Below are positions 2,181 through 29,568 of a DNA stretch of 64,000 nt, piece by piece. Location of the stretch: NCBI RefSeq assembly GCF_036507355.1, contig NZ_AP027877.1. One strand, given 5' to 3'. The position numbers were made by a program, and so were the translations under genes. The notes beneath the pieces are model-generated. The model saw only the letters and a program-made list of their open reading frames with translations, did no database searches and was not told where the DNA came from. The stretch is from Escherichia coli. Lineage in GTDB: Bacteria; Pseudomonadota; Gammaproteobacteria; Enterobacterales; Enterobacteriaceae. Within the stretch, counting starts at the first letter, position 1; each line of letters begins with the position of its first letter.

Positions 2181-3374
2181 ATGACGAAAGTGACACGCGC
2201 AGTAATTGTGGGAGGCGGGATCGGCGGTGCGGCAACTGCGCTGTCACTGGCCCGCCTGGGGATCAAAGTGGTGCTGCTGGAAAAGGCGCATGAGATCGGT
2301 GAGATTGGCGCGGGCATCCAGTTGGGGCCAAATGCGTTTTCGGCGCTGGACAGCCTCGGCGTCGGCGAAGTTGCCCGCCAGCGCGCGGTGTTTACCGATC
2401 ACATTACCATGATGGATGCGGTGAACGCCGAAGAAGTGGTGTGCATTGAAACCGGGCAGGCTTTTCGTGACCATTTCGGCGGCCCTTACGCGGTGATCCA
2501 CCGGGTTGATATTCACGCCTCGGTGTGGGAAGCGGTACTGACGCATCCGGACGTGGAATATCACACCTCCACCAACGTCGTGGATATTCGCGAGACGGAA
2601 GACGATGTCACCGTGTTTGACGATCGCGGCAATAGCTGGACCGGCGATATTCTGATTGGCTGTGACGGCGTGAAGTCAGTGGTGCGCCAGAGCTTATTGG
2701 GCGATGCGCCGCGTGTCACCGGACATGTTGTCTACCGTGCGGTTATCGATCGTGCCGATATGCCGGAAGATTTGCGCATTAACGCACCGGTACTGTGGGC
2801 GGGGCCGCATTGTCACTTGGTGCATTACCCTTTGCGCGGCGGCAAGCAGTATAACCTGGTGGTAACATTCCACAGCCGCCAGCAGGAAGAGTGGGGCGTG
2901 AAGGATGGTAGTAAAGAGGAAGTGCTCTCTTACTTTGAAGGGATTCACCCCCGTCCGCGCCAGATGTTGGATAAACCGACTTCATGGCGACGCTGGTCAA
3001 CCGCTGACCGTGAACCGGTGGCGAAGTGGGGAACGAAGCGCATAACGCTTGTGGGCGATTCGGCCCATCCGGTGGCGCAATATATGGCGCAGGGAGCCTG
3101 TATGGCGCTGGAAGATGCAGTAACGCTGGGTAAGGCGCTGGCGCAGTGTGAGGGTGATGCGGCGCAAGCCTTTGCGCTGTATGAGTCGGTACGAATTCCG
3201 CGCACCGCGCGCATCGTCTGGTCGACCCGTGAAATGGGGCGGGTTTACCACGCCGCAGGGGTAGAACGCCAGGTACGTAATCTGCTGTGGAAAGGGAAAT
3301 CGCAGGCAGAATTTTATCGCGGCATGGAGTGGTTGTACGGCTGGAAAGAAGATAACTGTTTGCAACCACGCTAA
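2181..3374 (+). CDS. 3-hydroxybenzoate 6-hydroxylase (FAD-dependent aromatic monooxygenase; mhbM-like)
   Basis: 397-aa ORF; N-terminal FAD dinucleotide-binding motif VIVGGGIGGAATALSLARLGIKVVLLEK; RBS aggaga upstream. Confidence 0.7.
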   Translation: MTKVTRAVIVGGGIGGAATALSLARLGIKVVLLEKAHEIGEIGAGIQLGPNAFSALDSLGVGEVARQRAVFTDHITMMDAVNAEEVVCIETGQAFRDHFGGPYAVIHRVDIHASVWEAVLTHPDVEYHTSTNVVDIRETEDDVTVFDDRGNSWTGDILIGCDGVKSVVRQSLLGDAPRVTGHVVYRAVIDRADMPEDLRINAPVLWAGPHCHLVHYPLRGGKQYNLVVTFHSRQQEEWGVKDGSKEEVLSYFEGIHPRPRQMLDKPTSWRRWSTADREPVAKWGTKRITLVGDSAHPVAQYMAQGACMALEDAVTLGKALAQCEGDAAQAFALYESVRIPRTARIVWSTREMGRVYHAAGVERQVRNLLWKGKSQAEFYRGMEWLYGWKEDNCLQPR

Positions 3375-3533
3375 GCACTTCTTCACCCAATCAGGCGCAC
3401 GGGCGGTCCCCTCGCCCCTTCGGGAGAGGGTTAGGGTGAGGGTAAAAATCTTGCCCGAATTAATCAGTAAGTCAGTTTGTCTGCAAACACAGGAGGCGCT
3501 AACATAGCGCCTCATTTTTTTGCGGGTGATGAT

Positions 3534-4484
3534 ATGCGTGTGTTACTGGCTCCGATGGAGGGAGTGCTTGACTCTCTGGTGCGTGAATTGCTGACCGAAG
3601 TTAACGACTACGATCTGTGCATCACCGAGTTCGTCCGCGTGGTGGATCAACTGCTGCCGGTGAAAGTCTTTCATCGCATTTGCCCTGAGCTACAAAACGC
3701 CAGCCGGACACCATCCGGTACGCTGGTGCGCGTGCAGTTGTTGGGTCAGTTCCCACAATGGCTGGCAGAGAACGCCGCCCGTGCGGTGGAATTAGGTTCC
3801 TGGGGCGTGGATCTCAATTGCGGCTGCCCGTCGAAAACGGTTAACGGTAGCGGTGGTGGGGCGACGTTACTCAAAGATCCTGAACTCATCTACCAGGGTG
3901 CAAAAGCGATGCGTGAAGCTGTACCGGCGCATTTGCCCGTCAGCGTGAAAGTGCGTCTGGGCTGGGACAGCGGTGAGAAGAAATTTGAAATCGCCGATGC
4001 GGTTCAACAGGCTGGTGCTACGGAGCTGGTGGTGCATGGACGGACAAAAGAGCAGGGTTACCGCGCGGAGCATATTGACTGGCAGGCGATTGGCGAGATT
4101 CGCCAGCGGCTGAATATTCCGGTGATTGCCAACGGCGAAATCTGGGACTGGCAGAGCGCGCAACAATGCATGGCGATCAGCGGCTGCGACTCAGTGATGA
4201 TTGGTCGCGGGGCGCTCAATATTCCCAACCTGAGCCGGGTAGTAAAATATAACGAACCGCGAATGCCGTGGCCGGAGGTGGTTGCTTTGCTGCAAAAATA
4301 TACCCGTCTGGAAAAGCAGGGCGATACCGGGTTATATCACGTAGCGCGGATTAAACAGTGGTTGAGTTATTTGCGTAAAGAATACGATGAAGCAACAGAA
4401 TTATTTCAGCATGTTCGTGTGTTGAATAATTCCCCTGATATTGCAAGGGCTATTCAGGCAATTGATATCGGTAAGCTGCGATAA
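3534..4484 (+). CDS. dusC: tRNA-dihydrouridine synthase C
   Basis: N-terminus [13 protein letters not shown] and length (about 316 aa) match E. coli DusC; ORF-track start at 3477 is an upstream in-frame extension. Confidence 0.9.
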
Positions 4485-4955: not shown

Positions 4956-5178
4956 TGGCGTTCCTTTATTTGTGAGTGCTGAATAAGTATAGGAAAAAAC
5001 GAAGCCCTTTGCCGTTATCCATAAACGATTAAGATAAATCGGAAGATATCATTCACTTAGTGTATATTTTTCTGGATATGTCGTTTTATTGCTACTGATG
5101 TATTGCCACGCGAAACTAAAAAATATATCGCAACACACGGTAATCTCCGCGCACCTTTTCTTACCTGATTATTCCCCC

Positions 5179-6615
5179 ATGAATCGTGATTCCTTTTATC
5201 CAGCCATCGCCTGTTTTCCGCTGTTACTGATGCTGGCCGGGTGTGCGCCTATGCATGAAACCCGCCAGGCGTTAAGCCAGCAAACGCCCGCTGCACAAGT
5301 TGACACCGCATTACCCACGGCGCTGAAAAATGGTTGGCCAGACAGCCAATGGTGGCTGGAGTATCACGATAATCAACTCACTTCCTTAATTAACAATGCA
5401 CTACAGAACGCACCGGATATGCAGGTGGCTGAACAGCGCATTCAGTTAGCTGAAGCCCAGGCGAAGGCAGTTGCTACTCAGGATGGTCCGCAGATCGACT
5501 TTTCTGCGGATATGGAGCGGCAAAAAATGTCGGCAGAAGGGCTAATGGGGCCGTTTGCTCTGAACGATCCGGCCGCAGGTACGACCGGTCCGTGGTACAC
5601 CAACGGAACTTTTGGCTTAACGGCGGGCTGGCATCTCGATATCTGGGGAAAGAATCGGGCGGAGGTTACTGCCCGCCTGGGTACGGTTAAAGCACGGGCG
5701 GCGGAACGCGAGCAAACCCGCCAATTGCTGGCTGGCAGCGTAGCCCGCCTGTACTGGGAGTGGCAAACCCAGGCGGCGTTAAACACGGTCTTGCAGCAAA
5801 TCGAAAAAGAGCAGAACACCATTATCGCGACCGATCGCCAGCTATATCAGAACGGGATTACTTCTTCAGTTGAAGGTGTGGAAACCGATATTAATGCCAG
5901 CAAAACCCGGCAGCAGCTCAACGATGTCGCGGGGAAAATGAAAATTATTGAGGCACGGTTAAGCGCACTTACAAATCACCAGACAAAGTCATTGAAGCTT
6001 AAACCGGTCGCGTTGCCGAAAGTGGCAAGCCAGCTTCCTGATGAACTGGGGTACTCCTTACTGGCCCGGCGGGCAGATTTGCAGGCGGCGCACTGGTACG
6101 TTGAGTCATCGCTAAGCACCATTGATGCGGCAAAAGCGGCATTTTATCCTGACATCAACCTGATGGCCTTCCTGCAACAGGATGCGTTGCACTTAAGCGA
6201 TCTGTTCCGTCATTCCGCGCAGCAAATGGGCGTTACGGCAGGCCTGACGCTACCCATTTTCGATAGTGGTCGTCTTAACGCCAATCTCGATATCGCAAAA
6301 GCTGAAAGCAACTTGTCTATCGCCAGCTACAACAAAGCGGTGGTTGAAGCGGTGAATGACGTGGCGCGGACAGCCAGTCAGGTTCAGACACTTGCGGAGA
6401 AAAACCAGCATCAGGCGCAAATTGAGCGCGATGCCTTGCGTGTGGTAGGTCTTGCGCAGGCGCGCTTTAACGCGGGCATCATTGCTGGTTCCCGCGTCAG
6501 CGAAGCCAGAATCCCCGCGTTGCGTGAGCGGGCCAATGGCCTGTTATTGCAAGGGCAGTGGCTGGATGCCTCCATTCAACTCACTGGTGCGTTGGGCGGG
6601 GGTTACAAACGCTGA
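5179..6615 (+). CDS. mdtQ: outer-membrane efflux lipoprotein (OMF family), apparently intact
   Basis: Lipobox LLLMLAGC after start MNRDSF; 478-aa OMF/TolC-like sequence with no internal stop. Confidence 0.8.
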   Translation: MNRDSFYPAIACFPLLLMLAGCAPMHETRQALSQQTPAAQVDTALPTALKNGWPDSQWWLEYHDNQLTSLINNALQNAPDMQVAEQRIQLAEAQAKAVATQDGPQIDFSADMERQKMSAEGLMGPFALNDPAAGTTGPWYTNGTFGLTAGWHLDIWGKNRAEVTARLGTVKARAAEREQTRQLLAGSVARLYWEWQTQAALNTVLQQIEKEQNTIIATDRQLYQNGITSSVEGVETDINASKTRQQLNDVAGKMKIIEARLSALTNHQTKSLKLKPVALPKVASQLPDELGYSLLARRADLQAAHWYVESSLSTIDAAKAAFYPDINLMAFLQQDALHLSDLFRHSAQQMGVTAGLTLPIFDSGRLNANLDIAKAESNLSIASYNKAVVEAVNDVARTASQVQTLAEKNQHQAQIERDALRVVGLAQARFNAGIIAGSRVSEARIPALRERANGLLLQGQWLDASIQLTGALGGGYKR

Positions 6616-8883: not shown

Positions 8884-9056
8884 AAAGTTCTTTGACGTTG
8901 CATTGCTGGCGTAAATGTCAGCAATGCAGCATTTCCTCACGATTCTCCTTTGACGATCGCACTTTTTGCTCGTTATGATGGCGTCGCTAGCCTCAGTAAA
9001 TCCTTACTCCGGCGGTGCGCAACCCGTGCGCGTGAACCACTATCTGAATGCTCATC

Positions 9057-29482: not shown

Positions 29483-29568
29483 AATAAAAAAACCTGCTGG
29501 TGAGGCAGGTTCTTTTATTTACTATTTTCAGGCCTAACACCACAGCCTGTGCAACATCGTGTTCCAAC
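29483..29568 (-). ncRNA. predicted antisense sRNA antitoxin (OrzO-like), roughly 85 nt
   Basis: Minus-strand -10 TATAAT (plus 29575-29580) placing the start near 29568; minus-strand intrinsic terminator (hairpin 29491-29511 plus U-run 29481-29490); its 5' end is complementary to the toxin leader at 29716-29734 (19 nt, 1 mismatch). Confidence 0.5.

Follow-up and report, generated by a model that had tools for sequence, protein, structure and literature searches.

The G/C-rich motif between mhbM and dusC in the 64-kb stretch of DNA analysed here (the window) is, judging from its sequence, a solo copy and an ordinary member of a known Escherichia coli repeat that goes by the names BoxC, PIT, TMECO 'A mm' and HPG1. 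The best explanation of the evidence as a whole, in which we have high confidence, is that the motif is a solo BoxC that most likely has no selected local function and that would derive from the repeats found at the ends of DUF559 genes. The repeat itself has been known since the 1990s and the window copy is one more member of a catalogued family, so the feature is of small importance in its own right; once recognized as BoxC, it will not be mistaken for a terminator, a regulatory site or the attachment site of an island. How BoxC/PIT/TMECO arose and spread has been a puzzle for some 30 years, and the role of the very large DUF559 family is likewise unexplained. A link between the two provides a testable candidate for an enzyme that recognizes BoxC repeats, and could explain both rearrangement-prone sites and the 'programmed inversion' scores of DUF559 genes (PMC9881135).

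The BoxC copy at 3408-3442 and its relatives

The window is from E. coli O157:H7, with 100% identity to many O157:H7 chromosomes in sequence comparison. The 35-mer CCCCTCGCCCCTTCGGGAGAGGGTTAGGGTGAGGG occurs once in its 64 kb, at 3408-3442 on the plus strand, and none of 100 dinucleotide-preserving shuffles had a match at three or fewer mismatches, so the G/C-rich motif of the original prediction is real. It is non-coding and is located in the mhbM-dusC spacer, between the mhbM stop codon (3374) and the dusC start codon (3534). All of its parts are on the plus strand. Block 1, the pyrimidine (C-rich) arm CCCCTCGCCCC (3408-3418), has the central G that marks the 'A mm' type (Table 1 in PMC4666352) and is separated by a TTC loop (3419-3421) from block 2, the purine (G-rich) arm GGGAGAGGG (3422-3430), with which it forms a Watson-Crick hairpin. 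A TTA linker (3431-3433) leads to block 3, the purine arm GGGTGAGGG (3434-3442), which repeats block 2 in the same orientation (TTCGGGAGAGGG versus TTAGGGTGAGGG, 83%). The first two blocks pair across nine positions with one A.G mismatch; to that extent the motif is the imperfect extended palindrome originally described, but the third block, as a direct repeat, falls outside that description.

Folded as single-stranded DNA, 3406-3432 reaches -7.6 kcal/mol (z -2.2) with the block 1:block 2 hairpin, whereas in the ensemble centroid block 1 pairs instead with block 3 through a G.T wobble. Blocks 2 and 3 together supply four G3 tracts with 3-nt loops, which is a G-quadruplex motif, and block 3 is the third strand in the triplex proposed for the family (PMC4666352, PMC5100583). 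In vitro, oligonucleotides of the family form a stable intrastrand triplex or G-quadruplex (PMC4666352, PMC5100583); the duplex DNA stays duplex, and triplex was undetected by in vivo footprinting (PMC4666352). On the question of triplex or G-quadruplex, the folding computed here covers Watson-Crick pairing only, and the CD and NMR data in those two papers concern the consensus rather than the variant in the window.

The full BoxC unit spans approximately 3396-3450 (plus strand) and consists of the left flank GCGCACGGnCGGT, the three-block core and the right flank (T/G)AAAA. These limits were set by alignment with the copies at pstA-pstB, trmJ-iscR, adk-hemH and argE-ppc, all four of which are intergenic; the left flank GCGCACGGnCGGT and the right flank (G/T)AAAA are conserved with these four E. 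coli copies over around 55 nt. The window copy, flanks included, agrees with the published BoxC unit size of about 56 bp. The interval first proposed, 3375-3476, contains the motif but is wider than the repeat unit. With 3396-3450 as a blastn query, positions 1-52 were covered in other genomes.

The family pattern CCCTCNCCC-N3-6-GGGNGAGGG-N3-GGGNGAGGG was defined by Holder et al. in 2015 (PMC4666352), who listed 23 such sequences in K-12 and equated them with BoxC and with the PIT ('potential intrastrand triplex') elements of Hoyne and Maher. The window carries this pattern at 3409-3442 as CCCTCGCCC-CTTC-GGGAGAGGG-TTA-GGGTGAGGG, and its copy belongs to 'A mm', the commonest type in that study. 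A profile HMM built from the 23 published K-12 copies (nhmmer) matched the same positions with E 3e-9 and gave no second match below E 15 anywhere in the 64-kb window; searches of the window for further or degenerate copies, using the 35-mer with three mismatches, a half-site pattern and the HMM, found none beyond this one. The core GGGAGAGGGTTAGGGTGAGGG is the HPG1 G-quadruplex/hairpin motif of Kaplan et al. 2016 (PMC5100583). Because the pattern, the 23-copy profile, the conserved flanks and the multi-copy dispersal all agree, we treat the motif as an ordinary member of the known family.

At the gathering threshold Rfam returned nothing at the site, and at a permissive threshold only chance-level matches at 3473-3528 (E up to 10). 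Gathering-threshold matches elsewhere in the window are to the OrzO-P antitoxin RNA (29486-29561, minus strand), the Peptidase-S11 RNA motif (8972-9052, plus strand), in the neighbourhood of which K-12 and O157 annotations put pbpG, and a TPP riboswitch (53857-53953, plus strand).

BoxC copies were found by blastn in 5408 of 5426 complete E. coli genomes, at 12-13 places in O157:H7 and at a median of 16-17 places per genome over E. coli. A whole-genome search for further copies had been proposed as a check, and the idea of a small dispersed repeat is borne out by it, as well as by the published record of BoxC/PIT/TMECO (PMC4666352, PMC5100583). Nearly all BoxC places (76,628 of 76,671) are chromosomal. 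The repeat is essentially absent from phages (5 of 50,697 records) and occurs in a minority of plasmid records (391 of 72,556), which are large plasmids, many being chromids or mislabelled chromosomes.

Beyond E. coli, among the matches listed (one genome per species), the exact 21-mer nearly always follows a CCCTC(T/G)CCC arm. The taxa among these listed matches are alpha-, beta-, gamma- and deltaproteobacteria, Verrucomicrobiales, Gracilibacteria and uncultured rumen bacteria, and one further listed match is on a short contig binned as archaeal; the flanks of the non-E. coli copies are lineage-specific. In the study of Holder et al. the motif came from 262 proteobacterial genomes (PMC4666352), and the distribution seen here is somewhat broader. 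Outer-stem complementarity of the flanks, taken over 117 non-independent copies from many lineages, was weak (mean best run of 3.74, against 3.50 +/- 0.09 in re-paired controls), and we do not rely on it because these copies are not independent. In a Gracilibacteria metagenome-assembled genome (L024-L028), G/C-rich 35-nt TMECO cores stand with sharp borders in very A+T-rich surroundings. Hand translation of the reverse strand of L024 gave an open frame through the element (..IPHPNPLPEVEG..); in an automated check, no run of at least 150 aa without a stop (table 11) covered any of the five copies.

An unstable spacer and its alternative readings

The gene to the left of the motif, mhbM (3-hydroxybenzoate 6-monooxygenase; 2181-3374, plus strand, from the ORF and the O157 record annotation), is the last gene of the mhb/gentisate island, and dusC (3534-4484, plus strand, mapped from the annotation of the identical O157 record) is the first core gene rightward. 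The 6.3-kb mhb cluster (a LysR regulator, mhbT, gtdA, a fumarylacetoacetate hydrolase family gene, maiA and mhbM) takes the place of about 125 bp of K-12 spacer, with yohJ on one side and dusC on the other. BoxC lies 34 nt past the mhbM stop on the coding strand, in the mhbM 3' untranslated region, and 92 nt upstream of the dusC start. Similarity to K-12 restarts at 3489-3494, 47-52 nt to the right of the motif, which agrees with the proposed boundary between accessory and core DNA. The motif is absent from the corresponding junction in K-12-type strains that lack the cluster; it is neither unique in the genome nor equally present in strains with and without the cluster. Farther to the right, mdtQ (about 5089-6615 of the window) has the annotation of an intact gene, 1437 bp long, in the O157 record and that of a frameshifted pseudogene in K-12.

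Genome comparisons place BoxC in a variable segment of 111 nt (3381-3491, plus strand). Whereas the island is found in 498 genomes, this segment is found in only 365. In around 130 island-bearing genomes (for example, strains 90-1 and MSB1_4I), 13 nt (TAATCCGCTGACC) replace the 111 nt; K-12-like sequence directly follows the mhbM stop in these short-variant strains and the motif is absent. From 3492 onward, the dusC leader is the same in K-12 and in short-variant strains, both of which are without BoxC. Because short-variant strains carry 13 nt instead, neither the island nor dusC needs the repeat, and the spacer is a dimorphic, locally unstable slot. Such a hypervariable slot agrees with the published link between TMECO and local instability, in which repeat-bearing loci were more rearranged among E. 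coli strains than control intergenic regions (PMC4666352).

Here, at trmJ-iscR and at argE-ppc, the borders between presence and absence are ragged, as in replacements; clean insertions with target duplications are not seen. At trmJ-iscR (L004 versus L130) and argE-ppc (L006 versus L131), the BoxC segment of some strains takes the slot, just past a stop codon, that REP/BIME arrays take in K-12, and genuine REPs are present in both K-12 alleles. The REP consensus consists of GCCGGATGCGGCG...CTTATCCGGCCTAC-like palindromic units, and a search for the REP/BIME consensus at 3375-3492 of the window found none. The right arm of the variable segment (3444-3493) occurs at one place per genome in 365 genomes (blastn) and so is not a repeat; over 42 nt it has 74% similarity to the sequence on the right of the argE-ppc copy, a level that none of 2000 shuffles reached, and this may reflect a longer ancestral unit. 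In K-12, the yohJ-dusC spacer (L001, 2940-2975) has a hairpin with a perfect 11-bp stem, AGAGGGATTGC...GCAATCCCTCT, and the core of this hairpin, AGTTTGCAGCAATC, is similar to the sequence on the right of BoxC at argE-ppc (p about 0.008); the hairpin may be a decayed BoxC-associated unit.

The alternative that survives best, although we consider it unlikely, is that the motif is a structured 3' element of the mhb operon, either a REP-like hairpin that stabilizes mRNA or a factor-independent terminator. Given its position past the mhbM stop on the coding strand, the transcript would contain the hairpin, and K-12 copies of the family tend toward the 3' ends of ORFs (PMC5100583). The motif is followed, however, by TAAAAATC and no T-run, as expected from the earlier remark that it does not look like a simple terminator, and a separate, far stronger terminator-like hairpin with T7 stands 50 nt downstream. 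This hairpin, GAGGCGCTA-ACA-TAGCGCCTC followed by ATTTTTTT (3493-3520, plus strand), folds as DNA at -10.4 kcal/mol (z -6.4) and is the sole site in a terminator scan of 3200-3700 (3493-3513 plus T7). It is outside the repeat, in core DNA common to K-12, and its foot is where K-12 similarity restarts; it is the likely 3' end, or terminator, of the mhb transcript. It ends 14 nt upstream of the dusC start codon, and because it is kept in K-12, where the co-directional upstream gene is absent, it may in O157 be a dusC leader or attenuator besides an mhb terminator. Also against a 3' element are the roughly 130 island-bearing genomes without the motif and the finding of Hoyne and Maher (2002), as cited in PMC4666352, that PIT elements showed activity neither as promoters nor as terminators.

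That the motif regulates dusC as a G-quadruplex/hairpin switch is less probable still. The four G3 tracts with 3-nt loops upstream of dusC would suit such a role, and a G-quadruplex-hairpin-duplex switch has been proposed for the family (PMC5100583). K-12 and the short-variant strains, however, share the dusC leader from 3492 without any BoxC, the terminator-like hairpin stands between the motif and dusC, and the TMECO family has neither gene-class nor distance bias (PMC4666352). Least probable of all is the recombination scar or attachment site left by mhb island integration that the original prediction offered as an option: the motif is some 50 nt from the point at which K-12 similarity restarts and TMECO sites are statistically tied to local rearrangement (PMC4666352), but the breakpoint is off the motif, a search of the left island end found no second BoxC, the island annotation contains no integrase or transposase, the short-variant islands join the core directly past the mhbM stop, and the motif is present at many loci unrelated to islands. 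The single copy, the lack of an integrase and the short-variant junctions largely refute a scar already.

The reading that we prefer for the mhbM-dusC locus is that BoxC, most likely without selected function, would be a marker of an unstable slot between genes and would behave there as a passive or selfish repeat. A local effect on the 3' stability of mhbM mRNA, or on read-through into dusC, could accompany it.

DUF559 genes and three-block repeats

We looked for gene families that recur near copies of the repeat. In a rumen genome, the gene for a 126-aa DUF559 protein (Pfam E 1.6e-38) lies between two inverted copies, and its last codons and stop codon are encoded by the repeat itself. In E. 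coli K-12, the DUF559 gene ycjD ends in CCCTCTCCC-TGA, and next to it come a duplicate of its 3' part and published copy no. 9, in that order; at sapF-ycjD-fabI (K-12; L132, 1660-2330, and L157), ycjD, its duplicated 3' fragment and this BoxC form one segment, carried by 3375 of the 5426 E. coli genomes. In an uncultured bacterium (L108, 3440-3860), a reverse-complement TMECO and a DUF559 domain lie in frame inside an ORF for a PriA-like helicase. This arrangement (peptide TPHPNPLPQGERK...) resembles the in-frame insertions of Rickettsia palindromic elements. An Asticcacaulis DUF559 gene has an inverted repeat pair downstream.

These four loci were selected via the repeat, and later loci were sampled regardless of it. 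Most of 120 DUF559 homologues stop before the repeat, as judged from their C-terminal tails, so the DNA context was needed to assess the association. One repeat-blind sample, from a profile search with repeat-encoded tails trimmed, gave five independent metagenomic contexts; the other, from tblastn of plasmid and chromid records, gave eight loci (S. meliloti, Azospirillum, Deinococcus, Sphingomonas, Pseudanabaena, Picosynechococcus, N. gonorrhoeae and Photobacterium). All of the repeat-blind loci have C-arm/G-arm/G-arm repeats adjoining the gene, usually inverted between its sides.

In total, 17 of 17 independent DUF559 loci, ycjD among them, are flanked by three-block repeats, 13 according to a strict detector and four by eye, the latter having split or short arms that the detector missed. 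These loci span alpha-, beta- and gammaproteobacteria, Deinococcus, cyanobacteria and uncultured bacteria, and the arm sequence depends on the lineage: proteobacteria have GGGAGAGGG, Deinococcus has GGGGGAGG and cyanobacteria have G5-6. In most of the 17, the copies are inverted between the two sides of the gene. Within 300 bp of the DUF559 genes (17 loci, 10.1 kb of flank), the strict detector gave 28 matches in 13 of the 17 loci, compared with 0.1 expected from shuffles of those flanks; it gave none in the outer parts of the unbiased loci (8 kb), one per 3.9 kb in motif-selected loci and one in the 64-kb window. DUF559 genes and three-block repeats thus occur together. A search of the collection of papers used here found none that joins DUF559 to BoxC/PIT/TMECO, and the association is apparently unreported.

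Tandem reverse-complement TMECO units (CCCTCACCCCAACCCTCTCCC..GGAGAGGG) with a 46-bp period occur just downstream of a DUF559 gene on two related contigs (L133, 1939-2040; L137, 1940-2180), which differ in the number of tandem copies. At another locus (L139, about 820-850 and 1420-1450), both outer sides of the DUF559 unit carry TCAAGACAGTCTCTTCATGCCCAGAT, a direct repeat of 26 nt that may be a target duplication; the downstream flank of L140 continues as the upstream flank of L139.

Because all 17 DUF559 loci are flanked by three-block repeats, BoxC may be the solo end repeat of a DUF559 element. The hypothesis, to which we give about an even chance, is that BoxC/PIT/TMECO and its sequence variants in other phyla, rather than being free-standing 'structural' repeats, are the inverted end repeats of a tiny, widespread selfish unit that contains DUF559 alone, and that solo and paired copies are miniature or decayed derivatives. 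Each unit would comprise only a gene for a Vsr-like PD-(D/E)XK endonuclease with inverted three-block repeats on its two sides. Published findings that fit are that DUF559 is placed together with Vsr and a group I intron homing endonuclease (PMC3424549), that its genes are over-represented among predicted targets of programmed inversion (PMC9881135), and that a Caulobacter DUF559 protein triggers an SOS response in a methylase mutant (PMC12907096). From the co-location and the sequence identity, we infer that the DUF559 nuclease may mobilize the repeats. BoxC copies would then be solo or miniature leftovers of the end repeats, or perhaps sequences mobilized in trans. More speculatively, pairing of block 1 with block 3 in the common 'A mm' type would place a G.T mismatch at the centre, and Vsr-type nucleases nick substrates of this kind.

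Several points count against an active DUF559-BoxC system in E. coli today. O157:H7 lacks ycjD at sapF-fabI, yet keeps its 12-13 BoxC copies. The site there was rejected as a clean empty site for the ycjD unit, since a TetR-family regulator gene (eefR side) stands in place of the ycjD segment (PMC12817139). The idea of a 'master copy' beside ycjD was also rejected: strains with a single BoxC hold it at zntA-tusA or fimH-gntP, and low-copy strains keep copies at these places with no DUF559 gene adjoining. In the window itself, phmmer found no DUF559 ORF in the 64 kb and there is no second, inverted repeat copy, so the window copy is solo. We regard it as best seen as an old solo relic because of the missing DUF559 ORF, the absence of ycjD from O157:H7, the single copies elsewhere and the unclean borders.

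Comparison with known systems

The window copy resembles BoxC/PIT/TMECO as described by Bachellier in the 1990s, Hoyne and Maher in 2000-2002 and Holder et al. in 2015 (PMC4666352) in its three blocks, TTA linker and block 1 G mismatch, and also in its flanks, intergenic siting and multi-copy dispersal in E. coli. It differs in being one G shorter at the border between the loop and block 2 (TTC-GGGAGAGGG rather than TTTG-GGGAGAGGG), in having T rather than G as its last base and in its locus, which does not exist in K-12. HPG1 (PMC5100583), the exact core of which (GGGAGAGGGTTAGGGTGAGGG) is present in the window copy, is a second name for the same repeat rather than a separate family; its regulatory switch is a proposal.

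Free-standing EDxHD/Vsr-like homing endonuclease genes, such as that of I-Bth0305I, are a further comparison. A DUF559 profile matches PDB 3HRL with E 1.7e-34 and the catalytic domain of I-Bth0305I (3R3P) with E 0.0017, and one unit lies in frame inside a PriA-like gene. The DUF559 units differ from homing endonuclease genes in that they are outside introns and inteins and are bracketed by G/C-rich inverted repeats, which to our knowledge are not a feature of homing endonuclease genes.

REP/BIME sequences and their RAYT partners (REPINs) are likewise small intergenic palindromic repeats that follow stop codons, and they share slots with BoxC segments; their consensus is unrelated to BoxC, which is without the GTAG motif. 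The hundreds of solo and paired BoxC copies, the one at 3408-3442 included, would relate to DUF559 as REP and REPIN relate to RAYT. The proposed pairing of a repeat with a nuclease gene is thus analogous to that of REP with RAYT, with the difference that the candidate partner of BoxC is a PD-(D/E)XK, Vsr-like DUF559 nuclease rather than an HUH tyrosine transposase.
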